A DNA stretch of 62,538 nt, filler included, from Nemertoderma westbladi (lineage: Eukaryota; Animalia; Xenacoelomorpha), in the NCBI GenBank assembly GCA_032718475.1. It is 3 parts of 3 records of this genome, joined end to end, with 100 filler letters (N's around TTAATTAATTAA, not from the genome) between each part and the next. Parts side by side here need not be neighbours in the genome. Positions count along the whole stretch, not along the records: positions 22,062 to 47,681 come from JAUCBJ010002911.1; 2 more parts are not named here. One strand, written 5' to 3'. The position numbers were made by a program, and so were the translations under genes. Of this stretch, positions 3,601 through 60,170 are shown one piece after another (position 1 is the stretch's first letter; each line of letters starts with the position of its first letter). The notes beneath the pieces are model-generated. The model saw only the letters and a program-made list of their open reading frames with translations, did not search any database and was not told where the DNA came from.

Positions 3601-5145
3601 TCTGGTATGTTACGGTAATGGAGTTGTGTACCTGGTATGTATGGTAACGGAGTTGTGTACCTGAGAGCTGAACCATCTGGTATGTTACGGTAATGGAGTT
3701 GTGTACCTGCGCGCCGTACCATCTGGTATGTATGGTAACGGAGTTGTGTACCTGAGAGCTGTACCATCTGGTATGTTACGGTAATGGAGTTGTTACCCCT
3801 GCGCGCCGTCCATCTGGTAAGTTATGGTAACGGAGTTGTGTACCTGAGAGCCGTACCATCTGGTATGTTACAGTAATGGATTTGTGTATCTGAGCACCAT
3901 ACCATCTAGTATGTTATGGTAACGGAGTTGTGTACCTGCGCCCCATACCATCTGGTATGTTATGGTAACGGAGTTGTGTACCTGTGTGCCGTATCATCTG
4001 GTATGTTACAGTAATGGAGTTGTTAACCTGAGCGCCGTACCATCTGGTATGTTATGGTAATGGAGTTGTGTACCTGAGCGCCGTACCATCTGGTATGTTA
4101 TGGTAATGGAGTTGTGTACCTGTGCGCCGTACCATCTGGTATGTTACAGTAATGGGGTTGTTAACCTGAGCGCCGTACCATCTGGTATGTTACGGTAACG
4201 GAGTTGTGTACTTGAGAGCTGTACCATCTGGTATGCTATGGTAACAGAGTTGTGTACCTGAGAGCCATACCATCTGGTATGTTATGGTAACAGAGTTGTG
4301 TACCTGAGAGCCATACCATCTGGTATGTTATGGTAATGGAATTGTGTACCTGAGCACCGTACCATCTAGTATGATATGGTAACGGAGTTGTGTACCTGCG
4401 CGCCATACCATCTGGTATGCTACGGTAACGGAGTTGTGTACCTGCGCGCCGTACCATCTGGTATGTTACAGTAACGGAGTTGTGTACCTGAGCGCCGTAC
4501 CATCTGGTATGTTATGGTAACGGAGTTGTGTACCTGTGCGCCGTACCATCTGGTATGTTACAGTAATGGAGTTGTTAACCTGAGCGCCGTACCATCTGGT
4601 ATGTTACGGTAATGGAGTTGTGTACCTGAGCGCCGTACCATCTGGTATGTTATGGTAACGGAGTTGTGTACCTGTGCGCCGTGCCATCTGGTATGTTACA
4701 GTAATGGAGTTGTTAACCTGAGCGCCGTACCATCTGGTATGTTACGGTAACGGAGTTGTGTACTTGAGAGCTGTACCATCTGGTATGTTATGGTAACGGA
4801 GTTGTGTACCTGAGAGCTGTACCATCTGGTATGCTATGGTAACAGAGTTGTGTACCTGAGAGCCATACCATCTGGTATGTTATGGTAACAGAGTTGTGTA
4901 CCTGAGAGCCATACCATCTGGTATGTTATGGTAATGGAATTGTGTACCTGAGCACCGTACCATCTAGTATGATATGGTAACGGAGTTGTGTACCTGCGCA
5001 CCATACCATCTGGTATGCTACGGTAACGGAGTTGTGTACCTGCCCGCCGTACCATCTGGTATGTTACAGTAACGGAGTTGTGTACCTGAGAGCCATACCA
5101 TCTGGTATGTTATGGTAACTGAGTTGTGTACCTGCGCGCCGTACA
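3601..5145. repeat. 46-bp minisatellite, ~33 copies
   Basis: Unit ATCTGGTATGTTATGGTAACGGAGTTGTGTACCTGAGCGCCGTACC. Period checked between 4041 and 4087. Confidence 0.95.
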
Positions 5146-23825: not shown

Positions 23826-25670
23826 CTAGACACCGTCGAAGGTGGGGAATTTCCCTGTTAGTAATATCTCCTCGGCTTTATAAGAGGGGAACACCCCAGT
23901 TCTACCGGTGCGGAGATTATCCGCCTTCGAGTAACCGTTCCAATGGTTCCCGGCTATGTGCAACTTATCCCCAATCTCGATGTCCAACTCCCCGGCGCGC
24001 CGCGCCTTGTGCGCCCAAATCGCACGCAAATCGTGGCTCTGCTGCCCCCCGAAGTAAAAAATATCGTCCAACGAGCGGTAACTCGCATAGCCGTCGACGT
24101 TGCGCGTCTGCATCACCTCGTAAGCGAGCCGGCAGACCTGGGAGGAGAACGTGCAGACGAGGTAATCGCACTGCCCCAAGAAGAATAAGTCCAACACGAT
24201 GCCGTGGAGGGAGGCCTCGGTGAATCGGGAGCCGAGCGAGGCGGTCCGCGCGAAATCGGGGTCGCCTAGGAAGCGATACCGCGGGAACCTGTTCCTCGCG
24301 TCGGCCAAAAGATTGGGGTCGTCCGTGGCCAGATACACCCGGCGTTCCGTCACGTTCTCCCGCAGTTCCAACTGGTAGTACCAGTCGTCTACGTGACGCA
24401 TGTACTCGGATACATCGTGGAAGGAAGCCTCGGTGCCGACCTTGTCGGTTCGTCGTACATGAACTCCGACTATCGGGTTAGCGAACCCGATGTCTGAGCT
24501 CATCTCGCGGATAGCGGAACGAGTCGCGTTGGAGTAACGCATGATGTAGCGAACCAGCTGGCCGAGCCACCAGATGGGCGGGTCCCCGTGGATCGCGGAG
24601 AGAACCTCCGCGAATTCCCCGGGGATCGCGAGCGGGAGGTAGTCCGGTCGGTTGTTTATCGCGTCTACGATCGGGAGTTCCACGACCTGGGCGTGACGCA
24701 TCGAGCGATGGCTGCCCCACGGGCGACGGTTGTAGGACCCCGCGACGCTAACGCAACTCGCGCTCAGCGGCGCGAACACGCTGTCCCAACCGCGCTTAGT
24801 GTAGCGCCAACTAGCGGACTCCAACACCAGCGTGCGCTGCGTCCCCAAGGCGACCATCAGACAGTAGACCAGATGGTGTATCTGGCAGCCCAACCCGCAG
24901 GCTTTGTTCACCGAGCATACTAACTTCCTGGCGTTCACGCAATCCGGCGGGTTCTGTAACGCAAAAAGTCTGCGTTGTATGACGTCACTGAGTCTGTCTG
25001 CGACGCCCTGCCGCCAGGCGGCGTTCAACCCCCCCAGTCTGGTGAACCCGTCTCGTATCACTCTGTTGTGCTCCTTCGCTCGTTCTAAGAAGTCCCCCAA
25101 CGCCTCCTGCGGAAGGCTACCCAGCTTCGCCTGGCGTTGCAACTCAGACACTTCAGAATTTATGAGCCACCAAAAACTAGTCACGTCTTCGTCTAACTTC
25201 CGTCGGAGTTTCTCATACTCTCCGGACCGCAAAAGACTTAAACCGGAAGGCAACTGGATGCTATCGAGGGGGGACGAGTCGGGTTTACCGGTAGCAACTG
25301 GAATCGGAACCGGGGATACTACAACTGCCCCAACTACTGTAGACTCGTTTGTCACCGCCGATAACTGGCGAGTTAATATCTTGAGTTGTTTGTTCTCCTG
25401 GCTGAGTTTATCGAACTGTAACTTGAGTTGGAGGTAGTCGTCGCGGATTCCGCTGGGTTGTCTGTGCGACGGACCGGTGGGGTCGGTGGACTGCGGTACC
25501 ACGGGAGTCTGTTTGAATAGCACGATCAGGAAGACGACCCACAGCACTGTCAGGATTCCTAGAAGATTCCATAGCGAGGATTTTAAACAGCAGTAAATCA
25601 ACGATAATTTCATCGCACGATCTACGATGATGTTACAGTCAGACAGTGTTATAGGAACCGGAAGTTGCAT
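23826..25670 (-). CDS. FUT8: Alpha-1,6-fucosyltransferase (GT23), intronless CDS
   Basis: 614-aa ORF with an N-terminal TM anchor, coiled coil, LQNPPDC..KLVC..NKACGLGCQIHH, VGVHVRRTDKVGTEA, YLATDDP, DYLVCTFSSQVCR and a C-terminal SH3 (GNHWNGYSK..GVFPSYK). The true start may be the second Met (25613). Confidence 0.97.
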   Translation of the reverse strand: MQLPVPITLSDCNIIVDRAMKLSLIYCCLKSSLWNLLGILTVLWVVFLIVLFKQTPVVPQSTDPTGPSHRQPSGIRDDYLQLKLQFDKLSQENKQLKILTRQLSAVTNESTVVGAVVVSPVPIPVATGKPDSSPLDSIQLPSGLSLLRSGEYEKLRRKLDEDVTSFWWLINSEVSELQRQAKLGSLPQEALGDFLERAKEHNRVIRDGFTRLGGLNAAWRQGVADRLSDVIQRRLFALQNPPDCVNARKLVCSVNKACGLGCQIHHLVYCLMVALGTQRTLVLESASWRYTKRGWDSVFAPLSASCVSVAGSYNRRPWGSHRSMRHAQVVELPIVDAINNRPDYLPLAIPGEFAEVLSAIHGDPPIWWLGQLVRYIMRYSNATRSAIREMSSDIGFANPIVGVHVRRTDKVGTEASFHDVSEYMRHVDDWYYQLELRENVTERRVYLATDDPNLLADARNRFPRYRFLGDPDFARTASLGSRFTEASLHGIVLDLFFLGQCDYLVCTFSSQVCRLAYEVMQTRNVDGYASYRSLDDIFYFGGQQSHDLRAIWAHKARRAGELDIEIGDKLHIAGNHWNGYSKADNLRTGRTGVFPSYKAEEILLTGKFPTFDGV

Positions 25671-25736
25671 GCAATAACCTCCATCACAGATGATATAGGC
25701 CTACAGATATTACAGCATTATCAGATATACAGATCT

Positions 25737-29320: not shown

Positions 29321-29598
29321 CTAGGCCCGAAACGACAGCAACCAGTTCGCATGTAGAACATGCATTGTTGGATTCCCCGAGGCGGTTCCTTTGAGTTAAA
29401 TCCATCGCTTTTTATTGTCTGTTGTTCCTTCTGTGCCACCGCATCGCTATTTATTGACAGTGGGACTGCGGCATGCCGTGTGGTATAGGGTGGTTCGTCT
29501 TTCCACCCGGTGGTGGAACTGTCACCATCAGTGGGGTGGATCGATGGGGTAGGGGGTGTTCGTGTTGTGGGGGGTGACTGAGGTTGTTGGGTGGCAAC
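29321..29598 (-). CDS. ZRSR2: ZRSR2-like splicing factor, exon D (start of CCCH zinc finger 1)
   Basis: cttctctag|GTT..CCT AG|gtgagt, 278 bp. VATQQPQSPP...GIQQCMFYMRTGCCRFGP(R) resembles CPFYSKTGACRFGDR of ZRSR2. In frame with the upstream exons. Confidence 0.88.
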
Positions 29599-29809
29599 CT
29601 AGAGAAGGGTGCAGTCGCCGTGACTAAGTAATACAAACCTAGGAGTGTTAATAACTGAAGTTGGATAATTACTGTTAAGGACTATTATACAATTATAGAT
29701 TTTATCAAAATAAGCAAGCTGATGAATTAATTTCACAAACATGACTAAAATCCACTGATAGGTACAGTATAAGCATATAAACCTTAAGTAATAAGTTAAT
29801 TAAGTATAA

Positions 29810-30051
29810 GGAGGCGGGGTAGCTCAGTTGGTTGAGCGCCGGGCCTGCAATCTATTGGTTGTAGGTTCAGCCCCGCCAGGGTCCACTCAGCCTTTCATCC
29901 ACTGGGCGGGGTCGATGAAATGAGTACCAGTTATATAACTGGGAGCAAATCTTGGGATAGGAGTAGCGCCCACCCCTACCCTCGGGTAGCAGCTATCGAA
30001 CGAGGAGCCTTCGGGTCGCCTCCGGCTTCGGCCGACTGTTTGCTTTTTTTA
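29810..30051 (+). mobile_element. tRNA-derived SINE
   Basis: A box TAGCTCAGTTGG, degenerate B box GGTTCAGCCCC, central ACTCAGCCTTTCATCC..GGTCGATGAAATGAGTACCAG, 3' hairpins and a T tail. Approximate TSD aagttaattaag (29793-29804 / 30052-30063). Confidence 0.85.
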
Positions 30052-31045
30052 AAGTTAATTAAGATATGTAGTAGTTCATTATTATTCAAACAATGGTGTT
30101 AATAAAAGTTTGGTACATTGAACGCCGTTTTCGGGGTGTATACGACATTTTAATTCAGTTAAGGGGTTATTCACCACCGCGACTGATAGCCGGTATTGTA
30201 GACCCTAACTGAATTAATATGATAATAAAAGTAATTTAAAGCCGTGAAAAATAAAATATTATTTTATTTATTTGTATAGAATTAATTTCGCACTACCAAA
30301 TCGCCAGGGCGACATATTTTCCAACTTTACATCGCAGTGCGACATTTATTTCTCAGTATGTCCCTACGCCATACAATTACTATCTATATCCAGTATGTCA
30401 CCGTGTTATTCTGAATTAAATCACATAATAAGTATTAATTCACAATTATACAACTTATTACAAAAATTAAATAAGTCAGAATCGAACCAGCGACCTTTAC
30501 ATTCATAACTCGCCGCGTTATCCACTACGCTTATTTAGTACAAAATGAATGTTTAAATAATTAACATGTCATGCTTTCCTTTTACAAGGTTATTCTAGAA
30601 ATGTTAAGTGCATAATTACAAATAATTCCCCAAAAAAAAAATAAAAATAGATTCGGCAATTTTCAAAATTAGCGCTTTAAAGCCTTTACACTGCACGGCC
30701 CTCGTTTTGTTATTTCCCTCGTACCGTAACGCTATAAACTGCTATTTTATGAACCCTGACGTATATAGTTAAATTACTTAATGTTGAGCACAGCTTAGCA
30801 ATATCGGCTTTGAGCCAAGTTGCAAGTCTATCGATTCCGAAACCCCCCCACCTGGTGCGAGTTTAGCGGGTCTACTACTAACCTTCCCCCTATGGCCCCA
30901 ATAGCGCAAACACAATGCTCGCCCAACCTTTTGGTTGTTAGATCCCAGTAAGGTCTATTATACAGCAGCAAAGGCCCCATTAATGTACGTAAAAGCCCAA
31001 CCTTTTAGGGGGATGTATTTAACTGATCTTATTGCACCAATATCT

Positions 31046-32175
31046 ACACCAGGTGTCTGCACCAGGTTGCTGTGGCACCAATGTTTGCACCAGTGTCTGC
31101 ACCAGGTGTCTGCACAAGTGTCTGCACCAGTGTCTGAACCAGGTGTCTGCACCAGTGTCTGAACCAGGTGTCTGCACCAGTGTCTGTACGAGTGTCTGGA
31201 CCAGGTGTCTGCACCAGGTGTCTGCACCAGGTGTCTGCACCAGGTGTCAGCACCAGGTGTCTGCACAAGTGTCTGCACCAGTGTCTGAACCAGGTGTCTG
31301 CACCAGTGTCTGTACGAGTGTCTGGACCAGGTGTCTGCACCAGGTGTCTGCACCAGGTGTCTGCACCAGGTGTCTGCACCAGTGTCTGAACCAGGTGTCT
31401 GCACCAGTGTCTGAACCAGGTGTCTGCACCAGTGTCTGTGCGAGTGTCTGGACCAGTTGTCTGCAGCAGGTGTCTGCACCAGTGTCTGAACCAGGTGTCT
31501 GCAGCAGGTGTCTGTACCAGTGTCTGAACCAGGTGTCTGCACCAGTGTCTGAACCAGGTGTCTGCACCAGTGTCTGTACGAGTGTATGTACCAGGTATCG
31601 CACCAATGTCTGCACCAGGTGTCTGAACTAGGGGTCTGCACCAGTGTCTGTACCAGGTGTCTGCACCAGGTGTCAGCACCAGTGTCTGCACCAGTGTCTG
31701 CACCAAGTGTCTGCACCAGCGTCTGCACCAGGTTTCTGTACCAGTTTCTGCACCAGGTGTCTGCATCAGTGTCTGCACTAGGTCTTTGCACCAAGTGTCT
31801 GCACCAGGTGTCTGCACCAGGTGTCAGCACCAGTATCTGCACCAGTGTCTGACCAGTGTCTGCACCAGGTGTCTGGACCAGGTGTCTGCAAAGTGTCTGC
31901 ACCAGTGTCTGCACTAGGTGTCAGCACTAGTGTCTGGCCAGGTGTCTGCACAAGTATGCACAAGGTGTCTGCACCAGTGTCTGCAAAAGTGCTTGCAACA
32001 GGTTTCAGCACCAGTGTCTGCATCAGGTGTCTCAGTGTCTGCACCATTGTCTGCACAGGTGTCTGCATCAGTGTCTGCACTAGGTGTTTGCATCAGTAAC
32101 TGCACCAGAGTGTGCACCAGAGTGTTCACCAGTGTCTGCATCAGTTTCTGCACCAGGTGTCCGCACCAGGTGTTT
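31046..32175. repeat. 12/13-bp minisatellite (TGTCTGCACCAG[G])
   Basis: Degenerate tandem array. It produces the many overlapping spurious ORFs in this interval. Confidence 0.92.
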
Positions 32176-32525
32176 ACTTAACTTTTAGGCACTTTCACAC
32201 ACTTTGTTTAATTGCCGCGACTTTTATCTAGCCTTGAATTTTAGTTTGTTTGATCAGACTGCCTGTCTGCTGGTATCTGGTCTGTGCTGTTGTGGTGCGC
32301 TGTTCTGTTCTGTACTGATATAGTTAATACGGAACTAGACTTGAATGTGACTTGATGACAGGATTATATAGGCCCAGTGGATAGTCCGAATCTGCAAACG
32401 AGAAAACAAGGAATCTTTATTTAGCTTGGTTGGTACCGGTACTGGTACAGCAGTAGTACCGCCACTGAAGTTGAAATCACCTGTTCGACTGGATTTGTTA
32501 ACAACAACTGATCAATAATCAGATA

Positions 32526-33032
32526 ATGGCGAGTTACTTGAGAAATATTTCGTTTCTCATTCACAGACTGAATCTATCTCAACCTTTATACCAGCCCACG
32601 TATACACAAACCCGGAGCCTTGCCGGTCGTAAAACTCCCTCGAAACGCCGCATAAGACTCGCCCGAGAACGCCAAGAGGAGGACCGTAAACTAGCGGCGA
32701 CAGCGGCATCGAACCCGTACGCTAAACCTCCGGTAAGGTGCTACCTCTGCGACAACCCACACCTCGAGGTGAACTACAAGAACACCCAACTGTTGAGCCA
32801 GTTCATAGCCCCCCAGACAGGCCGCATAATGGCGGGCCGTGTGACGGGACTGTGTCGGGAGCAACAGGCCCGTGTTCGAACTCATATAATGTGGGCCCGA
32901 CTGTGCGGATACCTCCCTTATATGCACAAGGAAACGGAGTACATGGAGGACAAAGTCTATCACAGCGGCAGTGGTAGATGGACAACATTTACCCGTAAAG
33001 CGCACCCACATAAATTCATTAATAAATCCTAG
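32526..33032 (+). CDS. MRPS18C: Mitochondrial ribosomal protein S18c (bS18m), intronless CDS
   Basis: 168 aa. Arg-rich targeting-like N-terminus, then NPYAKPPVRCYLC..VNYKNTQLLSQFIAPQTGRI..VTGLC..GYLPYMHK, matching the S18c pattern NPY..C.LC..DYKNVQLLSQF..ITGLC. Confidence 0.9.
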   Translation: MASYLRNISFLIHRLNLSQPLYQPTYTQTRSLAGRKTPSKRRIRLARERQEEDRKLAATAASNPYAKPPVRCYLCDNPHLEVNYKNTQLLSQFIAPQTGRIMAGRVTGLCREQQARVRTHIMWARLCGYLPYMHKETEYMEDKVYHSGSGRWTTFTRKAHPHKFINKS

Positions 33033-33143
33033 ATGATTTTTTGACATGCAATAATTTATACCTCACAAGGCAAATTATAAAGGTAACGTAGTTTTCTGTA
33101 TTAACGTAAAAAAAAGCTGTGTCCCTATCACCTAAACTGTAAA

Positions 33144-33342
33144 GGGCCCCATGACAAATAGAGGCAGACTTTCTGCTGTTGTATTTCACTTGGCTGTTTA
33201 CCCCCCATGTGAAGAATACAGGTAATAAGATAGAAATAAGAAATATAGTATATATATACCCTATAAAACATTTAATAAGGAGAATTTCAAAGAATACAGA
33301 TGCTTCAAATTTTATGAAAACCTGCTATTCTTCACAAGGGCG
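33144..33342. mobile_element. MITE of the same family as 25737-26327
   Basis: cccccatgtgaagaatacagg...aagatagaaataag...tattcttcacaagggcg. A further terminal fragment lies at 42906-42947. Confidence 0.7.
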
Positions 33343-34205
33343 TGTTCTAGAATGTACCGGTACACATTTTTACAATTTGGGTATCATGATGAGGAGATAT
33401 TGCTGAATTTTAGTCAATCACTCCTAGAATGTAGAATTCTAAAATAGTAAGTTACTTGTTTTATTTTACAGTGCGTTCTGGCTTTCATGACCAGGGTTGA
33501 CAAAAAAAAAATATAAAAACAGGTTTTATTATTAAATTGTTACTTTTCCGCTCGAATATACCCCAAAATCGCGAGAAAAGGTTTTACTTTTTCCCCAGAG
33601 AAAAAACGTAACCCATATATGATTGATTTGTATTGACTGATTGGATTGTATTGATTTTACTTTTTCTCCCCATAAAAGTAAAATAAAATATTTTTGGTGT
33701 AATTTCTTAAATTTTATTACATGTGTTGAAAGAGCATCGAAGTAGAAAAGGTTTATGTACGTAATTTTAATGTGTACGTAAATAATAATATTTTTCAATA
33801 ATAGTGAAAAAAGTTATACCTTTTTCCCATGTAATAAATAATTATTATAACATTGCTGAGACCATGCAAAACCAATGCGCCTTCATATTCGCATAAAAAC
33901 AAAGAATAGGCGGCTACAATGGAATTAATAGTAATATAGTACAGTACAATGTATTCTAACTATTGTAAAAATTATTTACAATTACTGCATTGTAAAACTT
34001 TTATATTGAAGTGATACGAACAAAAAATGTTATGTTTATTTGCATTACCATAGGCATTACAAATTTTGGTACTGATAGTCGATATCATAAACTTCACTAT
34101 TAATTAATTAATCTATATTATAAAATAATTTCAATGATAGATTAATATAAGGATACTAGAATGAAAAAGGATATCAATCTCCAGGTAACAATGTAACTGT
34201 GGCAC

Positions 34206-34328
34206 CTCGGATCCTGGTTTAAGGGTTATCCGTGGTGGTTTTGCCTCGCCATTTTCCGTATCATCCGCCCTTCCTCTCGTCGTAGGTTCTGCCGCCTTAG
34301 TTGCTTCCCATTCTTCTATGATTTTTAT
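34206..34328 (-). CDS. ZRSR2: ZRSR2-like, exon C
   Basis: ttgtctttag|ATA..GAG|gtgcca, 123 bp. IKIIEEWEATKAAEP... (cf. RKLKEQWEE). Phase 0/0 fits its neighbours, but the donor is weak. Confidence 0.72.
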
Positions 34329-40224: not shown

Positions 40225-41930
40225 TTATGTATAAAATCGATTAATATTATAGTTAAAAAAGTTAAAATCACTATCACCTCTATCATAATCTTTGACATAG
40301 AATTGTTGCAACTTACTGCATCTTCTCCACACGAAGTCACAAAATTGCTCAATGAAATGCACATCTTCGTTATAGCTGTTCTCATCCGTGACACGACAAC
40401 TTATTACTCCTTTCATATTACCGGCATTGAAAATGTTCTCGAAATCAACAAATGATTGCTCTTCCAGACGGTGGGGTCCAACTAAACCAAATTCAACTAT
40501 AAGTGTAGTCAGAGAGAATAGAGATCGCAATGCCATTACCACACTTCCGTAGCTACATCTCTTCATAACCAGTGTCGAAACTGACTCTGTTAATGGGGTG
40601 CTCTCGACTCTTAATCCGCAATGATGTAGAGCCAATGATTGTAGATTCGGAAACAGTTTAACAGATCTACCAATGACAGGAGACTTCCATGAAGCTGCAA
40701 TTTCAAATACATTATTCCGGATAAAACAACGCCGTTTTGGGCGGCTGTGGTAATGATGTTATGAACAACGTACGAAAACTTATCACAAAGAGTCAACGAA
40801 GATAGTTTCTGGAATTTATTCATTACATTGAATAAACTTTGATCACGTAGCAGATCTGCTTTCGACGGATGGTTCCGCCAATTTAACTTGAGGCTTTCCA
40901 ATGAATCTTTGGAAATAGGAATAACAAACTCATTAAGGGTATCAACCATAGACACACTGGTGTGGAGACCGCGAAGAATATATCGGTTGTAAAGATTGAA
41001 ATTGGCGAAGTTTAATCCGATTTTATGAAGGTCGCATTCCGTCAGGTTGAATTGTTGGTCCCTAGTTAATATGTTGAGTAATTCCATAGACATGTTTGTG
41101 ACTATGGAAACATTGGGATATTTTAAAAGGAAGTTATCAAATCTTTTAATCATTTCCCCTGTAGAAAAGTTGGGAATGTTAATGCTTATTCTTTCCAGCT
41201 TTTTCATTTCGGGCAGGAAATTGGTAGAAAATAAGCTGTAATCAGTAGAACAATAACTCGCGACGTGGAGATTTACCAGATTAGGGCAACAGCGAGCAAT
41301 ACCTTTTACAGTACTGGAACTGAGACTCGTACCAGAGATGCTTAAGGAAGTGAGTTGAGGGAACACAACGGATTGCGCTAAAACTTCATTCAAGTCTGTA
41401 AAACCGGATGTATCGAGAGTCTCCAATGCAGCGGCCATCTTAGGAAGCCAACTTACTAAAACCGGGATGATATCAGAAGGGAACTCGTCTAGAAAGAAGT
41501 CATCAATAATAACGTTGACAGGCCACTGAGGCAGCATACAATCCCAAGGGAAGATACATGAATACGTTTCCATAATACCTTTCAAGGTTGGTGTGTCTGT
41601 ATGCTCCATTTTAGATTCATTACTTATCGATAATTCGTTATGTAACAACTTCAGCTGGTTGAATGCGATGATGTAGGAATGAAGATAGAACTTCCATAGA
41701 TTGTTGCGGAGTTTGGGAGCCAACCTTTTCAGCCACTGTGAGACAGATGTCCAATGGTCACTCTCTGCACTATCAGAATAATTGTTGTCCCATTTCTTTC
41801 GTTCAGCTGTTACAATACTGTTAACCAACAATCGAGTCAGATTGACAATACCGATTTCTTGGAGCGACAATAATCGACAGTTCTCTCGGAGTATAACGGG
41901 TCCTTCCCCTAAACATTTACTGGAGTACAT
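40225..41930 (-). CDS. Intronless leucine-rich-repeat protein with one apparent 1-nt frameshift near 40651-40653 (sequencing error or young pseudogene)
   Basis: The 439-aa ORF has LRRs (LETLDTSG, FPQLTSLSISGT, CCPNLVNLHVA, FQKLSSLTL). The next frame continues as FPNLQSLALHHCGL..LFSLTTLIV..CSKLQQFYV to the stop at 40225. The N-terminal LLSLQEIG is BC-box-like (inference). Confidence 0.75.
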
Positions 41931-44599
41931 CGTTAGATAATTATGCAGCTTCTGGGGGTAGATTTAACGCAGAAGTAGGCCTACTTACCGCTACGTACGT
42001 GTACATAGGTTTTTAAATAATTTTTTAATTATAGGTACAGGTAGTTTGATTTATTTATCTGTTTATCGTATCTTTACCATATAATAAGTGTTGACATCGC
42101 CTGGAGTGGAGTTTGGAACTGGTTTATTCCCAAACCCCGTACATCCATACGGTCTCAGCACTTATCCTTATACCTTATCTACTGTTACTGTTCCTACTGT
42201 TACTGCTACTGTTATTGTTCCACAGTTTGGTGTAGTATGATATGATAGTACAGTACAGATGTAATCTATCTAACTTAGGCGATGCTTTGAAGACGACACC
42301 GATGAAGCACATCTCTGCGCCAGCCCCTCCAGCGTATGCAATCCGACATAGCACATCCATTTTAGCACCAGTCGAAATGCTGCGCCGAACGTGTTCGGCG
42401 ACCTTATATAACTTTCAAAAGGACAGACCTTACCTTACTACAGCTTGACAACGCATTCAGATCTGAATCATTCTAAAATCTAACGGCAGCCAAGCCAAGT
42501 ACAACTGTAGTACAATCGCAGTCGTCCTACCTCTGACAACGTATTCCAGTAATAATGCTCAACTAGCCATTCATTAAATGAATCTAATATATAAATAACG
42601 TCGTGAAAATAATGTTCCATTTAAAAATAAAATTACTGTACGTATTACATGTTAAATAACGTGGAACATATTTTCACTGTGATCTCGATTCTTTATTAAC
42701 CTCGCTCTGCGCTCGGTAAATAAAATACCGAGTATAGCAGTCAAAATAATATTCTACATTATACTACCATGCAATAAATAATTACTACTTTTACCGCATT
42801 GTAAAGGATAATGACACTAAATATACTGTTGCTAGGTAATCGAATCCCCACAAAAGAGTTGGCAAGGGTTATCCAATATCCATCACTATCGATGGGAGAA
42901 CTGAAGTCGACTGAAAAGTGAAATCCTGGTATTCTTCAAATGGGCGCTTTGGTGTGGATGAGCTATAACATCATGAACATGAAAAATTACCCCCAGATCG
43001 CACGTATCCCCTGGGTGAACATTTCAAAGAACACATTTAGGACTTCGGCTGTAATAATATCACCTATTAAATTACTAACGTATTCCAGTAAATAATAATA
43101 TTACAAATACTAGAGTATGTAAGAGAATGTGCAACACGGTAGAACTCCAACTCGCGGGATGTTGCATTGATAACAGATAGAATTAATACACATTCGTTCA
43201 CGTTCGTTAATGTTCTACACCTGGTAAATATAATAGCCAAAGCGATGTTGTCAATAACAACCTCAATAATATCAAACAATAACTGGAAAACAAGCAGCGC
43301 TTTATTTCCCCAGAATTTCCCCATTATTTGAGTAAGTAACGATAATTGTACAAAGGGGCCATAAATAAGGGATATAAATCTAATTATCTTAGGCCGATAT
43401 GTAAATGTCAATATCCCTCCTCCATATCGGTTAAATCCGAAATAAGTTTAATTTTAAATAAAAGCACTCACGAGTGTTGGAATACTTTAATATTAATTAA
43501 ATATTTTTATAAGGTACCTTTTTGGGCTGGTGGACTCTTCTATCGGGAATACACTTTTTAGATTTAGCTCTTTGGGGCATCTTTCTTTGCCATTTATTCA
43601 ATTGTTTTATATTTAAAATGTATAATTAATCTGTTTTTATCTTTAATTTAACAAGATTTTAATATAGCCGCTGGAGGCGTAAGTCCGATGATAAATTAAA
43701 ATTAAAAAAATATGAAATTACCAAAAAATACCAAAGTCAGCAGTTTATGTGAAACTTTAGCAAGTTTATAATAAATTAATGTTCCTAAACGACATGAAAG
43801 TGTGATCACACTCAGCCTTATGTTGTAACTTGTAATTGCCGTCAGACATGAGACCTGTTCGAAATCTTGAGCACGACAACCCGAACGGAACTGTTAGTAC
43901 ATTCCCTGTAAGCCCGTATCATTGTCAGGAATAATAATATTGCGATAATCAATCGACTGATAACACAGGATTCAAGGGGCCTATTTTGCCACCAGACGCC
44001 CCACCGCAGCGCAAGTTTGATTTATGTTTTGATGTTACTAGCTAAATTTGAGTTACGATTCTAAAGTTGCACAAATTGTTTGTTAGTAAACGTCATTGAA
44101 GTTAAAAGCGCGAACAGAAGGGTAGCACGAACTTAGTTCCTATTGAAACGAATTTAGTTCCAAAATAAATTTTATAAAGCGAACTTGGTTCTAATCGGGG
44201 CGAACTTAGTTATAATCCCAGAATATCAAAACGAATTTGGTTCCAGTGGTGGCGAATTTGGTTCCAATGTTTCAATCTGGGGCGAGCCACGAAGTAGGCT
44301 ACGCCTTTGAAGAAATATAGTATCAATATTCAGTATGTCTTTATCTTTCACTAAATTTCGGTTCATTAGATCATGAAAATTCTGGTCGATCCTCCACTGT
44401 AACTATACGTTAGTTACCTTTACCTTATATGGGATGGTAAACAGTTTAAAGCAATTGGATAACTCAACTCGCATATGGCATACTTTATATTATACTAATA
44501 TTAATGATATTTACTATCTTGTATGACAACCTCGTACTAAACTCCTGTCTGTCTTACTATCTGCAAATAGTAAGTGAAAGCCAAACAGACAATAATTAC

Positions 44600-44716
44600 C
44601 TCATCTTCATTCTTCCTCCTGATTATCTCCTGTTGCCATAGGAACTGTTGCTGAGCAACGCGTTCTCTTTCCAACCATTGCTGGTGTTGGCGCCTACTTT
44701 CTATTTCTTCCGACAT
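44600..44716 (-). CDS. ZRSR2: ZRSR2-like, exon B
   Basis: catttag|ATG..GAG|gtaatt, 117 bp. MSEEIESRRQHQQWLERERVAQQQFLWQQEIIRRKNEDE resembles ERQRLHEEWLLREQKAQEEF. Confidence 0.88.
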
Positions 44717-44773
44717 CTAAATGAGTAAAGAATGGACACAACCTAGTAATAGTATGTATGAGCTAATACACTT

Positions 44774-46088
44774 AGTTCCAAAACGTTTTTCTTGAATTCC
44801 AAAACGTACCTGGTTAAGTTCCAAAACGTTTTTCTTGAGTTCCAAAACGTACCTGGTTAAGTTCCAAAACGTTTTTCTTGAGTTCCAAAACGTACCTGGT
44901 TAAGTTCCAAAACGTTTTTCTTGAATTCCAAAACGTACCTGGTTAAGTTCCAAAACGTTTTTCTTGAGTTCCAAAACGTACCTGGTTAAGTTCCAAAACG
45001 TTTTTCTTGAGTTCCAAAACGTACCTGGTTGAGTTCCAAAACGTACCTGTTTAAGTCCCAAAACGTACCGGTACCTGGTTAAATTCCAAAACGTACCTTG
45101 TTAAGTCCCAAAACGTACCTGGTTAAGTTCCAAAACGTACCTGGTTAAGTTCCAAAACGTACCGGTACCTGGTTAAATTCCAAAACGTACCTTGTTAAGT
45201 CCCAAAACGTACCTGGTTAAGTTCCAAAACGTACCGGGTTGAGTTCCAAAACGTACCTGTTTAAGTCCCAAAACGTACCGGTACCTGGTTAAATTCCAAA
45301 ACGTACCTTGTTAAGTCCCAAAACGTACCTGGTTAAGTTCCAAAACGTACCTGGTTAAGTTCCAAAACGTACCTGGTCAAGTTCCAAGACGTACCTGGTT
45401 AAGTTCCAAAACGTTTTTCTTAAGTTCCAAAACGTACCTGGTTGAGTTCCAAAACGTACCTGGTTAAGTCCCAAAACGTACCTGGTTAAGTTCCAAAACG
45501 TACCTGTTTAAGTCCCAAAACGTACCGGTACCTGATTAAATTCCAAAACGTACCTTGTTAAGTCCCAAAACGTACCTGGTCAAGTTCCAAAACGTACCTG
45601 GTTAAGTTCCAAAACGTACCTGTTAAGTTCCAAAACGTACCTTGTTAAGTCCCAAAACGTACCTGGTTAAGTCCCAAAACGTACCTGGTTAAGTTCCAAA
45701 ACGTACCTGGTTAAGTTCCAAAACGTACCTGGTTAAGTTCCAAAACGTACCTGGTTAAGTTCCAAGACGTACCTGGTCAAGTCCCAAAACGTACCTGGTT
45801 AAGTTCCAAAACGTACCTGGTTAAGTTCCAAAACGTACCTGGTTGAGTTCCAAAACGTACCTGGTTAAGTCCCAAAACGTACCTGGTTGAGTTCCAAAAC
45901 GTACCTGTTTAAGTCCCAAAACGTACCTGGTTAAGTCCCAAAACGTACCTGGTTAATTTCCAAAACGTACCTGGTTAGGTTTCAAAAACTACCTGGTTAG
46001 GTTCCAAAACGTACCTGGTTAAGTTCCAAAACGTACCTGGTTAAGTTCCAAAACGTACCTGGTTAAGTTCCAAAACGTACCTGGTTAA
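44774..46088 (-). repeat. 22-bp tandem array made of the ZRSR2 exon A splice-donor junction, ~60 units
   Basis: Minus-strand unit TTAACCAG|GTACGTTTTGGAAC: the last 8 exon nt plus the first 14 intron nt. The first unit is the real donor at 46081/46080. Confidence 0.93.
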
Positions 46089-46201
46089 TGTCCGACTCTT
46101 TGTGTCCCGGTAACTGAGGTACAAGGTATCTTCTCTGCGCTAGCCTTTGTCGTATTAATTTACGGCGCATTTTCTTCCAATGTTTTTTGTACTCTTTTCG
46201 A
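46081..46201 (-). CDS. ZRSR2: ZRSR2-like, exon A (first coding exon not located)
   Basis: ttttttttag|T CGA..CAG|gtacgt, 121 bp. RKEYKKHWKKMRRKLIRQRLAQRR.. resembles HKKYRAALKKEKRKKRRQELARLR. Confidence 0.85.
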
Positions 46202-47681
46202 CTAAAAAAAAACGTAAAAAAAAGCGTTAGAAAATTTCGACGAATTACATATGGTAAATAATTATGTGGTAATATTATTTAGTGCTACAAAACATCGCCT
46301 GAGTTTATTTTCACAATGCTCGGGAATAACATAACGTTCTCATAATGATTATGGATGGGCTAATGTTTATCAATGGGCCAAAAATGGTTCCTTAGTGGCC
46401 AAAAATGACATCCATTTTCGCACCACAGTTTTCGAACAATGGGGTTTGTGCGCGAAAAAAATGTTGGGTTAGAAACAATTAAATAAGGGGTAACACGGTG
46501 CCCTGAATCAAGAGGCGGGGTCTGTTTTTTGTAAAAACACGAGGACACGGTCTAAATGGCGGGTTTAAGTAAGCCCGGGAAACCTATTTTGAAAATCGAC
46601 TGTGATTGGATGCTACATATTTAACGTCACTACGCAGTGGTCCGATAATTTTATATATTGGTTTCTATGGACGGTGATTTTAGATCCATTCAATTACAAA
46701 TTTAATCTCAATTATTTCACACGTGGTTTATATCAATTGAAAGCTGAGAGTGTTGTGCGTCTTTTACCACTACAAATTAATTAAATTCATGATGAGGAAC
46801 ATTGATAAAATGCTGTGTGCAAATTTAATTATTTATTACAAATAATATTATTTAAATAAATTATGTTTACGTTTTCATAAATTCTGGCCCAAATTATGTG
46901 CGGCTATTTCATTTTAAATGCGTCGATTTTGCCCTGCAACAAATAATTATTATTAATAATTAAATAATTCAATATAATTAATAATTTTTTAATAATAAAC
47001 ATTAATAATTTAATAATTCAAATTTAATTGCGTCAACCGTAATTTCTAACAAGACGTGATAAAGACAATGATATATTATTATCGATACATTTTTTTTATC
47101 GAAATTGCAAATTGTCCCGTTCACGGCCGAATATCACGGTAACAAGCAACCATGTTACTGGTAAACCTATAAAGCCTTCCAATCTTGCCTATGCTTAATA
47201 ACCATAATAACGAACCTGCCTATTAATAGGCCAGGGTAGTTATTGTCAAGAGTTGAGCTGTTCAAAAACACGATGTGGTTATGTGTGTGTGTATGTATAT
47301 ATGTATAACCATCCAATATCTCAAAAACTCAAGCAGGTACGCAAAAATTTTAATAACAAACTCTACATAAATTTTGGTTGCGCACAAGACTGTATATTTT
47401 TTATGACGTTTCGATCACAGGGTCACTGAAAAATAGCGGCTTTGAAAATTTAAAGTCAAATTTCACCGATTTCAACTCGTCGAGTATGCACCAACTTTTC
47501 TATTTGGGCTATTCAGTCATTTGAGCAACATATTTGAGCCTCAGAATCTTGTCAAATATCGCCAATCTCGCACAGAACGTCGCCAAAATTTGTTAGTCCG
47601 GCAAAAAAACGCACAAATTCGTCTAAAAGAGTAAATTATTGGTTGCAGAATAATATGATTCAACTAGAAAAGCCAGTAAGC

Positions 47682-53312: not shown

Positions 53313-53604
53313 TGACAGCCACATAATGGATAACATATTATCCTTATCTTCTAGTGGACATTTCATCGCCAATGATTCTCCAACATATGCATCCGTGACT
53401 GTAGCTTTTTCCTCCAGCTTTTCTATCTTAAATATATTGTAGGATATAATGTTGGAAAAGGAAATTCCATATTGATTCTCTGCTTTGCATTGGTATTCGG
53501 AGATTCCCTCTTTATTCTTATCTTCGTTCAACTTAAAATAATCACCGCCGCCGGTAGTAATATCTGTAGCCGACAATTCAACCCCATTCCTAAGTAAGGT
53601 CACA
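53313..53604 (-). CDS. Ig-superfamily cell-surface/secreted protein (L1CAM/neuroglian/contactin-like), exon 3
   Basis: ttttgtttcag|T GTG..TCA|gtaagt, 292 bp. VTLLRNGVEL..EYQCKAENQYGISFSN..VGESLAMKCP..SIMWLS covers the end of Ig1 and the start of Ig2. Confidence 0.85.
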
Positions 53605-56600
53605 CTGAAACAAAATAATACATCTTCAACAACCACCGAATATCCTAAGTAAGGTCACAATGAAATAAAATAATACATCTTCAACAACCACCGAATATCC
53701 TAAGTAAGGTCACACTGAAATAAAATAATACATCTTCAACAACCACCGAATATCCTAAGTAAGGTAACACTGAAATAAAATAATACAACTTCAACAACCA
53801 CCGAATATCCTAAGTAAGGTCACACTGAAACAAAATAATACATCTTCAACAACCACCGAATATCCTAAGTAAGGTCACACTGAAACAAAATAATACATCT
53901 TCAACAACCACCGAATATCCTAAGTAAGGTCACACTGAAATAAAATAATACATCTTCAACAACCAAAGAATATCCTAAGTAAGGTCACACTGAAATAAAA
54001 TAATACATCTTCAACAACCACCGAATATCCTAAGTAAGGTCACAATGAAATAAAATAATACATCTTCAACAACCAAAGAATATCCTAAGTAAGGTCACAA
54101 TGAAATAAAATAATACATCTTCAACAACCACCGAATATCCTAAGTAAGGTCACACTGAAATAAAATAATACATCTTCAACAACCACCGAATATCCTAAGT
54201 AAGGTCACAATGAAATAAAATAATACATCTTCAACAACCACCGAATATCCTAAGTAAGGTCACACTGAAACAAAATAATACATCTTCAACAACCACCGAA
54301 TATCCTAAGTAAGGTCACACTGAAATAAAATAATACATCTTCAACAACCAAAGAATATCCTAAGTAAGGTCACACTGAAATAAAATAATACATCTTCAAC
54401 AACCACCGAATATCCTAAGTAAGGTCACAATGAAATAAAATAATACATCTTCAACAACCAAAGAATATCCTAAGTAAGGTCACAATGAAATAAAATAATA
54501 CATCTTCAACAACCACCGAATATCCTAAGTAAGGTCACACTGAAATAAAATAATACATCTTCAACAACCACCGAATATCCTAAGTAAGGTCACAATGAAA
54601 TAAAATAATACATCTTCAACAACCAAAGAATATCCTAAGTAAGGTCACAATGAAATAAAATAATACATCTTCAACAACCACCGAATATCCTAAGTAAGGT
54701 CACAATGAAATAAAATAATACATCTTCAACAACCACCGAATATCCTAAGTAAGGTCACAATGAAATAAAATAATACATCTTCAACAACCACCGAATATCC
54801 TAAGTAAGGTCACACTGAAATAAAATAATACATCTTCAACAACCAAAGAATATCCTAAGTAAGGTCACACTGAAATAAAATAATACATCTTCAACAACCA
54901 CCGAATATCCTAAGTAAGGTCACAATGAAATAAAATAATACATCTTCAACAACCACCGAATATCCTAAGTAAGGTCACAATGAAATAAAATAATACATCT
55001 TCAACAACCAAAGAATATCCTAAGTAAGGTCACAATGAAATAAAATAATACATCTTCAACAACCACCGAATATCCTAAGTAAGGTCACACTGAAATAAAA
55101 TAATACATCTTCAACAACCACCGAATATCCTAAGTAAGGTCACAATGAAATAAAATAATACATCTTCAACAACCAAAGAATATCCTAAGTAAGGTCACAA
55201 TGAAATAAAATAATACATCTTCAACAACCACCGAATATCCTAAGTAAGGTCACAATGAAATAAAATAATACATCTTCAACAACCACCGAATATCCTAAGT
55301 AAGGTCACAATGAAATAAAATAATACATCTTCAACAACCACCGAATATCCTAAGTAAGGTCACACTGAAATAAAATAATACATCTTCAACAACCACCGAA
55401 TATCCTAAGTAAGGTCACACTGAAATAAAATAATACATCTTCAACAACCAAAGAATATCCTAAGTAAGGTCACAATGAAATAAAATAATACATCTTCAAC
55501 AACCAAAGAATATCCTAAGTAAGGTCACACTGAAATAAAATAATACATCTTCAACAACCACCGAATATCCTAAGTAAGGTCACACTGAAATAAAATAATA
55601 CATCTTCAACAACCACCGAATATCCTAAGTAAGGTCACAATGAAATAAAATAATACATCTTCAACAACCACCGAATATCCTAAGTAAGGTCACAATGAAA
55701 TAAAATAATACATCTTCAACAACCAAAGAATATCCTAAGTAAGGTCACACTGAAATAAAATAATACATCTTCAACAACCACCGAATATCCTAAGTAAGGT
55801 CACAATGAAATAAAATAATACATCTTCAACAACCACCGAATATCCTAAGTAAGGTCACAATGAAATAAAATAATACATCTTCAACATCCAAAGAATATCC
55901 TAAGTAAGGTCACACTGAAATAAAATAATACATCTTCAACAACCACCGAATATCCTAAGTAAGGTCACAATGAAATAAAATAATACATCTTCAACAACCA
56001 AAGAATATCCTAAGTAAGGTCACACTGAAATAAAATAATACATCTTCAACAACCACCGAATATCCTAAGTAAGGTCACACTGAAATAAAATAATACATCT
56101 TCAACAACCAAAGAATATCCTAAGTAAGGTCACAATGAAATAAAATAATACATCTTCAACAACCAAAGAATATCCTAAGTAAGGTCACACTGAAATAAAA
56201 TAATACATCTTCAACAACCACCGAATATCCTAAGTAAGGTCACACTGAAATAAAATAATACATCTTCAACAACCACCGAATATCCTAAGTAAGGTCACAA
56301 TGAAATAAAATAATACATCTTCAACAACCAAAGAATATCCTAAGTAAGGTCACACTGAAATAAAATAATACATCTTCAACAACCACCGAATATCCTAAGT
56401 AAGGTCACACTGAAATAAAATAATACATCTTCAACAACCACCGAATATCCTAAGTAAGGTCACAATGAAATAAAATAATACATCTTCAACAACCACCGAA
56501 TATCCTAAGTAAGGTCACAATGAAATAAAATAATACATCTTCAACAACCAAAGAATATCCTAAGTAAGGTCACACTGAAATAAAATAATACATCTTCAAC

Positions 56601-58822
56601 AACCACCGAATATCCTAAGTAAGGTCACAATGAAATAAAATAATACATCTTCAACAACCAAAGAATATCCTAAGTAAGGTCACACTGAAATAAAATAATA
56701 CATCTTCAACAACCACCGAATATCCTAAGTAAGGTCACACTGAAATAAAATAATACATCTTCAACAACCAAAGAATATCCTAAGTAAGGTCACAATGAAA
56801 TAAAATAATACATCTTCAACAACCACCGAATATCCTAAGTAAGGTCACAATGAAATAAAATAATAGATCTTCAACAACCACCGAATATCCTAAGTAAGGT
56901 CACAATGAAATAAAATAATACATCTTCAACAACCACCGAATATCCTAAGTAAGGTCACACTGAAATAAAATAATACATCTTCAACAACCAAAGAATATCC
57001 TAAGTAAGGTCACACTGAAATAAAATAATACATCTTCAACAACCACCGAATATCCTAAGTAAGGTCACACTGAAATAAAATAATACATCTTCAACAACCA
57101 CCGAATATCCTAAGTAAGGTCACACTGAAATAAAATAATACATCTTCAACAACCACCGAATATCCTAAGTAAGGTCACAATGAAATAAAATAATAGATCT
57201 TCAACAACCACCGAATATCCTAAGTAAGGTCACAATGAAATAAAATAATACATCTTCAACAACCACCGAATATCCTAAGTAAGGTCACACTGAAATAAAA
57301 TAATACATCTTCAACAACCAAAGAATATCCTAAGTAAGGTCACACTGAAATAAAATAATACATCTTCAACAACCACCGAATATCCTAAGTAAGGTCACAC
57401 TGAAATAAAATAATACATCTTCAACAACCACCGAATATCCTAAGTAAGGTCACACTGAAATAAAATAATACATCTTCAACAACCAAAGAATATCCTAAGT
57501 AAGGTCACAATGAAATAAAATAATACATCTTCAACAACCACCGAATATCCTAAGTAAGGTCACAATGAAATAAAATAATACATCTTCAACAACCACCGAA
57601 TATCCTAAGTAAGGTCACAATGAAATAAAATAATAGATCTTCAACAACCAAAGAATATCCTAAGTAAGGTCACACTGAAATAAAATAATACATCTTCAAC
57701 AACCACCGAATATCCTAAGTAAGGTCACACTGAAATAAAATAATACATCTTCAACAACCACCGAATATCCTAAGTAAGGTCACAATGAAATAAAATAATA
57801 GATCTTCAACAACCACCGAATATCCTAAGTAAGGTCACAATGAAATAAAATAATAGATCTTCAACAACCAAAGAATATCCTAAGTAAGGTCACACTGAAA
57901 TAAAATAATACATCTTCAACAACCACCGAATATCCTAAGTAAGGTCACAATGAAATAAAATAATAGATCTTCAACAACCACCGAATATCCTAAGTAAGGT
58001 CACAATGAAATAAAATAATAGATCTTCAACAACCAAAGAATATCCTAAGTAAGGTCACACTGAAATAAAATAATACATCTTCAACAACCACCGAATATCC
58101 TAAGTAAGGTCACAATGAAATAAAATAATAGATCTTCAACAACCACCGAATATCCTAAGTAAGGTCACAATGAAATAAAATAATACATCTTCAACAACCA
58201 CCGAATATCCTAAGTAAGGTCACACTGAAATAAAATAATACATCTTCAACAACCACCGAATATCCTAAGTAAGGTCACACTGAAATAAAATAATACATCT
58301 TCAACAACCAAAGAATATCCTAAGTAAGGTCACAATGAAATAAAATAATACATCTTCAACAACCACCGAATATCCTAAGTAAGGTCACAATGAAATAAAA
58401 TAATAGATCTTCAACAACCACCGAATATCCTAAGTAAGGTCACAATGAAATAAAATAATACATCTTCAACAACCACCGAATATCCTAAGTAAGGTCACAC
58501 TGAAATAAAATAATACATCTTCAACAACCAAAGAATATCCTAAGTAAGGTCACACTGAAATAAAATAATACATCTTCAACAACCAAAGAATATCCTAAGT
58601 AAGGTCACACTGAAATAAAATAATACATCTTCAACAACCACCGAATATCCTAAGTAAGGTCACACTGAAATAAAATAATACATCTTCAACAACCACCGAA
58701 TATCCTAAGTAAGGTCACACTGAAATAAAATAATACATCTTCAACAACCAAAGAATATCCTAAGTAAGGTCACAATGAAATAAAATAATACATCTTTAAC
58801 AACCAAAAAATATCCTAAGTAA
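53588..58822 (-). repeat. 55-bp tandem array made of the exon-3 splice-acceptor junction, ~95 copies
   Basis: Minus-strand unit tattcggtggttgttgaagatgtattattttatttcAG|TGTGACCTTACTTAGGA: 38 intron nt plus 17 exon nt. The last unit is the real acceptor. Confidence 0.95.
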
Positions 58823-58829
58823 TCTAAGA

Positions 58830-60170
58830 TCTCGATTGCTGCAAAGCTATACAATAGAATTCTATTAAATCGCATCAGGGATCCCATTGAGAGACTGCTC
58901 CGTGGAAATCAGAATGGGTTCCGTAAAGGTCGTGGGACCATGGAGCCCATTTTGGCACTTAGAAGGATAATTGAAGAGTTATCAAAAAAGAAAGACAGGC
59001 ATCTGGCTGTTATCTTTGTTGACTTCTTCAAGGCCTTTGATTCAATCTCTCGCTCACGTATGTTCAGCATACTTTCATTATATTGGATTCCTGATGAAAT
59101 TATTGCAGCAATAAGATCAGTATACGATGGTTCGACAACATTTGTGTCTACTGTTGACGGTGACACAGAACCATTTGAAGTGTCATGGGGCGTCCTCCAG
59201 GGAGACACACTTGCACCATTCTTGTTCATAATTGTTGTTGACTATGTTTTACGCATGTCCTTAGATCATCATAATGATGATGGGGTGATGATAACTTCAC
59301 CATCTGGCTCCAGAAGTCGAGGAAATCCTGCCAAGTACCTAACTGATCTAGACTTTGCTGATGACTTAGGAGTACTCTCAGAATCACTAGAGGGAGCCCA
59401 ACGGCTCCTCAGTTCATTAGAGCATGCTGCTTCTAGTGTTGTTCTTTTTATTAACTCCAGAAAGACCAAAATTTTGACAGTTAACTTTGAAAGTCCTCAG
59501 CAAGTCTCTGATCGGATGAGCATAAGCTCAAAAGATGGTATGCTTGAGCATGTGGATGACTTCTGTTACCTGGGATCATGGATCCGGAAGTCAGGTGAGG
59601 ACCTTCGAATACGTAAGGGGAAGGCATGGGCAGCCTTGAATAGGCTTTCCAGGATTTGGAAGTCACCGAGAATTAATCGGAAACTTAAGGTCCGATTATT
59701 TAGAGCAGCAGTAGTTCCAGTACTCCTCTATGGGATTCCATGCTGGGCTCTAACTGCTGAGGACACCAAATCTCTGGATGGCACATTCACAAAAATGCTA
59801 CGCCGGGTTCATTGTGTCAAGTACAATGCACACATCTCCAACCAGACACTATATAACATTGGAGGTGTCTCATTGGTTCCCCCTAGCTTGACTCTAGAAC
59901 AAAATCGCCTCCGCTTTGCAGGACATTGCTTTCGCCGTGAGGACCAGCCAGTGCATAATCTTGTACTTTGGCAGCCTCATGGAGTGAATAAGCATGGTGG
60001 ACAGCCCATGACTTTCTTGAGACGCATCTTAAAGGACACTGGCCTTGAAGATGCGGATGATCTAGCAAATGCCATGGGTGATAGGGAGTTGTGGCGGTGC
60101 AATTTTGTCGATAAGCCGGCACAGCATTCTTAAAAATGCAGCTGCAATGCAGCATGCCGATCCTAGTAGT
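58830..60170 (+). mobile_element. 5'-truncated RTE-clade LINE with an uninterrupted RT reading frame
   Basis: SIAAKLYNRILLNRI..QNGFRKGR, FVDFFKAFDSI, GVLQGDTLAPFLF, LDFADD, FCYLGSW, RLRFAGHC. Stop at 60133, short 3'UTR and TAGTAGT tail. No TSD. Confidence 0.95.

Follow-up and report, generated by a model that had tools for sequence, protein, structure and literature searches.

A 22-nt minisatellite spanning an exon–intron boundary of a ZRSR2-like gene in Nemertoderma westbladi: a probably neutral array, with a predicted U2/U12 twintron elsewhere in the gene

The locus described here raises the question of why an intron of a probable splicing-factor gene should be made almost entirely of repeated AG|GT junctions, each of which looks like an acceptor placed directly against a donor. 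The intron lies in a 62,538-nt stretch of the genome of the xenacoelomorph Nemertoderma westbladi (GCA_032718475.1), referred to below as the window, in which three parts of three records are joined by filler. A first-pass annotation made from the sequence proposed that the repeats could act as recursive splice points or as an NMD-coupled sensor of the splicing factor ZRSR2, and allowed that they may be neutral.

The intron in question (46080–44717, minus strand, 1,364 nt) separates exon A (46081..46201, minus strand, 121 nt, starting in phase 2) from exon B (44600..44716, minus strand, 117 nt), whose first codon is an in-frame ATG. TRF calls an array of period 22 at 44797–46088 with 58 copies and 84% matches, and direct parsing gives 59 unit starts; from both, a 22-nt minisatellite is placed at 44775..46088 (minus strand), taking up about 95% of the intron. 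The array begins 8 nt inside exon A, each unit being composed of the 8 nt that end exon A, TTAACCAG, and the 14 nt that start the intron. The units show a mean identity of 92% to the modal unit and fall into 19 distinct types arranged in ordered higher-order blocks. AGGT occurs 51 times in the intron, 50 times in the array and once in the unique tail, and the 50 array junctions comprise 40 CAG|GTACGT, 5 AAG|GTACGT, 4 CAG|GTACCG and 1 CAG|GTAGTT, i.e., 45 CAG|GT of the YAG|GT type and 5 AAG|GT. Forty of them are exact copies of the authentic U2 donor CAG|GTACGT (46075..46083, minus strand), which matches the CAG|GTAAGT consensus at 8/9 positions. The initial description of an intron consisting nearly wholly of AG|GT repeats is borne out by these 59 units and 50 internal junctions, and so is its statement that read-through meets a TAA at the sixth codon, the translation being V-R-F-G-T-stop.

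The description of the single unit stands in part. The branch-like CTTAAC (32 occurrences for 59 units) and the juxtaposed AG|GT are both present, but the order of signals is not the one described, since the U tract of the unit lies upstream of CTTAAC and not between CTTAAC and AG. The branch-like A is 5–6 nt from the AG of its own unit and 27–28 nt from that of the next. AG|GT and CTTAAC recur from unit to unit because the unit copies a CAG|GTACGT donor together with its exon end: CTTAAC consists of one intron base followed by exon sequence, and the acceptor-like CAG is the usual exonic portion of a strong donor. The motifs are derived from the end of exon A itself and are therefore not independent signals. 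The alternating loss of donors towards the 3′ end of the intron, also pointed out at first pass, was found at six junctions. In total, seven junctions are donor-less (45416 and then, in alternation, 45003, 44960, 44917, 44874, 44831 and 44788), and at all seven the CAG is gone together with the GT; the 3′ part of the array (44775..45024, minus strand) correspondingly consists of 21+22-nt dimers, with CAG and GT missing from every second junction. The last intact array donor, at 44809, is 93 nt from the acceptor. The array is followed by a 72-nt tail (44717..44788, minus strand) formed by the last partial unit and unique sequence with the real acceptor, and if every full unit is taken out, what remains is a 72-nt intron that ends in this acceptor. 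The exon–array junction shows nothing special in predicted RNA structure (z 0.68), an Rfam scan of 43000–47680 gave no match, and the 23-nt junction pattern had 0 matches among metagenome contigs.

Evidence on which donor is used came from six sequencing runs, compared as assembled contigs only, of which four were mapped on 43300–44800; assembled contigs drop rare forms and so report the main product. In run X4, a 505-nt contig with a depth of 104 covers exon B, and its loose ends correspond on one side to the end of exon A and on the other to the beginning of exon C (34206..34328, minus strand, 123 nt), so that exon B is joined to both neighbours, the first donor is used and the 46081–44716 junction expected at first pass is confirmed in a spliced contig. 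This A–B junction is read from one contig of one run, among the loose ends listed. The type "DNA?" attached to X4 is a guess, and the exact skipping of two GT-AG introns indicates that the contig is derived from a transcript despite this label. In that run, the mRNA thus uses the most upstream donor. The word share of X4 (0.14 vs. about 0.12 from exons alone) and that of X3 (0.19 vs. 0.16–0.22 from multi-copy array words) are small and assume sampling over distinct words. Cover is lacking at 44728–44800 in X4 and at 44371–44800 in X3, and these gaps carry no evidential weight.

The same comparison bears on whether the array was inflated during assembly or is present in the sequenced individual only, a reading that we regard as extremely improbable. 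The window does contain scaffold gaps, and no listed contig crosses the array to fix its length. However, 19 distinct unit types in ordered higher-order blocks are hard to reconcile with such an origin, and the DNA contigs of runs X1 and X2 extend from exon B across the tail up to the array edge. The word share of the query was 0.50 in X1 and 0.48 in X2 (two studies), above the roughly 0.36 that the flanks alone supply, which implies that array words occur outside the assembly; one of the two runs may be the assembly's source. A short distance away, 44116–44268 is a very high-copy repeat in the DNA runs, with a summed depth of up to about 85,000, whose core GGAAC[CT]AA is similar to the intron-derived portion of the 22-nt unit.

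Repeats that straddle a splice boundary have been described before. Human minisatellites with the first monomer across an exon–intron boundary are reported for F7, 6-16, CBS, lamin B2 and PDGF (PMC1557585), with 5–9 copies of a 37-bp unit in F7 intron 7, 25 pseudo-sites in 6-16 intron 2 and 15–20 repeats in CBS intron 13. According to the same source, the F7 pseudo-donors are functional, yet the most upstream donor alone is chosen, and two extra donors are in use in 6-16 and CBS. The present array shares the features of the F7 type as described there, i.e., the first monomer spans the boundary, identical donors recur unchanged into the intron and the most upstream one is used. It differs in its shorter unit (22 nt), its greater number of copies (59) and its occupation of about 95% of the intron; moreover, exon A ends in CAG, which places an acceptor-like triplet before each donor, whereas F7 has UGG/gu. 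In amphioxus, "mirage" repeats were reported at donor and acceptor boundaries of Adh3 and the globins BflGb6 and BflGb9, with splicing undisturbed (PMC3087553). The likeness to these, as far as that account goes, lies in tandem copies at a boundary in an invertebrate, in the existence of donor and acceptor types, and in AG/GT being kept by many but not all units; the differences are the lineage and the copy number, 59 and 95 at the two arrays treated here vs. 3–6 in BflGb6. The array is thus best regarded, with good though not full confidence, as an unusually long member of this known class that is most likely neutral, in agreement with the neutral option of the first-pass annotation, which is the best supported of its proposals in view of the unit anatomy, the first-donor contig, the weak acceptors and the abundance of arrays in the window.

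Under this neutral reading, the approximately 50 extra donors are likely ignored, with the spliceosome committing to the first. Such a choice is not self-evident, since the array donors are strong (8/9) and the last one is 93 nt from the acceptor, and a mammalian model cited in PMC5933811 holds that the downstream site wins when U1 occupies both. First-donor choice could be achieved by exon definition or by 5′-to-3′ scanning, as in human F7 intron 7. If the second or third donor were used now and then, the reading frame would run into the TAA and the transcript would be wasted; a leak of this kind is plausible, as in human 6-16 and CBS, and would represent loss rather than control. With about 50 near-consensus donors spaced by 22 nt, the array is a natural case, in an invertebrate, in which first-come or scanning selection can be set against proximity as the basis of donor choice.

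The juxtaposed AG|GT sites also invite a reading in which the intron is removed stepwise through CAG|GT sites within it. Joining donor 1 to an AG of the array would rebuild a perfect donor, and joining one of the inner donors to the true acceptor would leave CAG beside exon B, so either direction of error would be repairable by a second round, giving a self-repairing ladder. Fifty AG|GT sites are available for it, the CTTAAC of the previous unit stands 27–28 nt before each AG with TTTT between them, within the 10–60 nt branch filter of PMC10156609, and that source also reports recursive sites from short introns, with recursion there a minor, stochastic route; the intermediates would be seamless and the final mRNA identical to the X4 contig. 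The array likewise resembles the recursive sites in the mouse and human sets, as those are described, in its YAG|GT junctions with a strong rebuilt donor. It departs from them in having no pyrimidine tract, a short intron and a 22-nt spacing. The unit has pyrimidines at 4/10 of positions −14 to −5, compared with 8/10 in all four real acceptors of the gene (4/4), and the repeated acceptors fall below even the background mean of 5.0 over 1,270 YAG sites. The mouse recursive sites are reported from introns over 51 kb with pyrimidine tracts (PMC8797253), as against 1.36 kb here. In addition, a CAG intervenes 3–4 nt after each branch-like A, the AG is not significantly protected within the array (P 0.29), units bearing AGGT are common in unrelated arrays of the window, and variants that kill the donor have themselves been amplified. 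A limited literature search turned up no case in which recursive splicing was demonstrated for a minisatellite of the boundary type. Stepwise removal is accordingly very unlikely, and the proposal of recursive splice points is disfavoured by the weak acceptors, the short intron and the amplified donor-killing variants; the self-repairing ladder is much less likely than the U12-based switch discussed below.

The neutral reading also accounts for how the array may have arisen. The minisatellite is made from the gene's own exon–intron boundary and has likely expanded, through tandem duplication, out of an intron of 72 nt. The two edges of the duplicated segment resemble each other over a short GGA..T(T)AA stretch, and slippage or unequal exchange between two such stretches flanking the donor could have started the process, to be followed by ordinary repeat turnover, as the 19 unit types in higher-order blocks suggest. 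We infer a short ancestral intron of which the 72-nt tail is the remnant. Intron gain by exon duplication (the Rogers model) was considered and ruled out, the 3′ end of the intron being unique sequence and not a copy of exon B. Selection on the repeated sites was assessed from variant classes sorted by hand: 1 of 13 single-site classes affects AG/GT where 2.4 are expected (P 0.29), i.e., there is no significant protection, and a variant killing both AG and GT has spread to seven junctions. Variants in the donor 9-mer are borderline scarce (2 of 13 single-site classes, 5.3 expected, P 0.051), with P 0.20 when multi-site events are counted.

The surroundings of the gene show how ordinary such arrays are in the window, which holds 11 locus-specific tandem arrays of unrelated units, 0.4–5.2 kb long (six of them 1.0–1.5 kb) and together covering 30%; six of the other ten carry 16–95 AGGT on one strand. 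One further array spans a boundary, that of a neighbouring Ig-domain gene (53588..58822, minus strand, 55 nt × 95), and copies an intron end with its acceptor plus the first 17 nt of the exon. This acceptor-type array, the mirror case of the ZRSR2-like one, is located 7.5 kb from the latter. Its boundary is predicted from sequence, with the Ig-domain exon beginning at 53604 and a reading phase that fits the upstream exon. AG is kept in 49 of its 95 units and lost in 46. The presence of a second boundary-spanning array in another gene makes a ZRSR2-specific cause unnecessary. One more such array among ten is no significant excess (P about 0.16–0.21). A 46-nt array at 3602–5144 (minus strand) carries about 30 CAG|GTACAC on the gene's strand and is tied to no exon found, from which it follows that AG|GT units can arise without a boundary. 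A LINE-like reverse transcriptase fragment (58823–60130) abuts the far end of the array in the Ig-domain gene, and the upstream exon of that gene (60659–60560, minus strand) is followed by a 72-nt array, 60552–60165, that starts a few bases past the predicted donor.

Whether the array could nevertheless serve a splicing factor depends on what the gene encodes, which is probably ZRSR2. Exons A–C presumably resemble the ZRSR2 N-terminus. Exon D (29321..29598, minus strand) carries at its end the first half of a zinc finger of the CCCH type, a partial match to Pfam PF00642 with an E of 0.0055, below the curated cut-off. This finger, at codon 199, sits behind a long charged region; it gives a weak match to that of U2AF23 (E 8.5), in which it is located at residue 17. 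Searches brought no closer relative: exon A had no named relative in the Atlas, exon B had 0 hits among 1.84 billion representatives, the exon D finger had no usable match in the protein collection, exon D gave generic CCCH clusters only, under 0.9, and the whole exon gave chance matches only against the PDB. The downstream exons (UHM/RRM, second finger and RS tail) were looked for in 1–29320, and none was found. The predicted twintron described below adds indirect support for the identity.

With a ZRSR2 identity, the array could be a regulated decoy or NMD sensor, in which the extra donors rival the first donor or soak up U1 and so tune the ZRSR2 level with array length. All 55 downstream donors (55/55) meet a stop before the junction, the array donors match the consensus at 8/9, the shortage of donor 9-mer variants is borderline, and the extra donors of human 6-16 and CBS provide a precedent. 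However, a stop is what chance would give, since 4,124 of 5,369 22-mers of the next intron (77%) produce one when repeated. ZRSR2 acts at U12-type 3′ sites (PMC9501576, PMC3584512), and the A–B intron contains 0 CCTTAAC and 0 RTATCCTT; an array without U12 signals has no evident tie to ZRSR2 activity. A better-formed switch is, moreover, found at another intron of the gene. We therefore consider the decoy or sensor unlikely, and the earlier idea of an array run by ZRSR2 as an NMD sensor is disfavoured by the missing U12 donor and branch motifs and by the expected stops. As a separate and speculative observation, the ATG that opens exon B (44716–44714, minus strand) would in principle permit re-initiation after an upstream stop; one isoform of zebrafish zrsr2 is without the first 152 residues (PMC9501576).

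The better-formed switch is a predicted U2/U12 twintron after exon C, 10 kb downstream of the array. Its outer U2 intron (29599..34205, minus strand) begins at a weak donor, GAG|GTGCCA (4/9), and keeps the frame open, the C–D join resting on the frame and on the end of the X4 contig. A U12-type AT-AC donor, ATATCCTTT (34166..34174, minus strand), lies 31 nt downstream of the U2 donor, and a second U12-type donor motif, GTATCCTT (34149..34156, minus strand), follows 18 nt past the first. At the other end, a U12-type branch sequence, TCCTTAAC (29681–29674), and an AC acceptor with its last intron base at 29660 (29660..29681, minus strand) are located 61 nt (counted from the AC) upstream of the U2 acceptor. 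The predicted AT-AC U12 intron would therefore run from 34174 to 29660 (minus strand, 4.5 kb), nested in the U2 intron. The distance from TCCTTAAC to the AC is 14 nt, just above the reported U12 branch-to-acceptor optimum of 11–13 nt (PMC3584512). In the window, RTATCCTTT occurs three times on the minus strand and 0 times on the plus strand, and TCCTTAAC occurs twice, both on the minus strand. The joint chance of a perfect ATATCCTTT and a perfect TCCTTAAC with AC is about 1e-6 per intron, a figure to be read with the fact that the search windows were set after the sites had been seen.

The two routes differ in their predicted products. The U2 route A–B–C–D stays open for 212 codons, whereas all donor–acceptor combinations from the U12 donors (8/8) lead to a premature stop and loss of the zinc finger. 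By the AT-AC route the transcript would gain 92 nt, with a stop falling 130 nt short of the exon D end. Past exon B, the X4 contig continues for 125 nt, i.e., through exon C and the two bases common to the intron and exon D, and neither the C–D junction nor the U12 junction is seen in it. If two forms were present, the assembly graph would branch here, exactly at the point where exon D departs from the genomic path, and the contig end would mark that point; intron retention or alleles could also cause it. The minor spliceosome depends on ZRSR2, and at high activity it would favour the U12 route and hence a frameshift before the zinc finger; the transcript would be directed to NMD. On these motifs and frames, the feedback switch of the gene is likely the predicted AT-AC U12 intron within the U2 intron, separate from the array. 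The earlier proposal of self-regulation by unproductive splicing is thus likely right for the gene, at the predicted twintron (34205–29599), but not for the array.

A precedent exists in Drosophila, where Urp/CG3294, the fly ZRSR2, contains a GT-AG twintron that truncates the protein at residue 314 of 456 and makes the transcript an NMD target (PMC2831892); this twintron is described as Diptera-specific (PMC2831892, PMC3291851). The likeness, as far as the fly case is described, is that the U12 donor lies shortly downstream of the U2 donor (29 nt in the fly, 31 nt here) and that splicing by the U2 route yields the full protein while the U12 route introduces a premature stop, which for the present gene is a prediction. 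Unlike the GT-AG intron of Urp, the candidate is of the AT-AC type, 4.5 kb long and fully nested, and its place is ahead of the first zinc finger, some 120 codons on from the beginning of exon A, with the positions compared by residue numbers. The two tandem U12 donor motifs, at 34174 and 34156, also recall the USSE of the minor-spliceosome genes SNRNP48 and RNPC3 (PMC8329584). As presented there, however, the USSE sites are no donors and activate an upstream acceptor, whereas here a matching U12 branch and an AC acceptor lie downstream. A limited literature search yielded no ZRSR2 twintron described from outside Diptera, and the available portion of PMC9501576 does not mention autoregulation of ZRSR2.

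That ZRSR2 limits itself through a U12 "poison" intron that is actually used outside Diptera, with a subtype, layout and position unlike those of the fly, appears slightly better than an even bet on the predicted sites. If the nested U12 intron is used, the minor spliceosome would exert feedback on its own 3′-site factor outside Diptera. The feedback loop would then be older than thought or have been invented more than once, and the intron would be a candidate for a further gain of a U12 intron, an event called unique in the fly papers.

Other genes are nested in introns of the ZRSR2-like gene, and all three recognised are intron-less: FUT8 (23829–25700, minus strand), mitochondrial ribosomal S18 (32502–33029, plus strand) and an LRR-type gene (40228–41963, minus strand), which lies in two frames. 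Mitochondrial ribosomal S18 lies within the twintron on the opposite strand, and a search for mRpS18 gave no relative at E 1e-10. The nested FUT8 has at most 54% identity among the best 120 matches listed, and in a quick tree of 44 of these 120 it forms a long unplaced branch. In a 12-row test, its grouping with two dipterans was narrowly rejected (p-AU 0.044), under a simple model and with this long branch.
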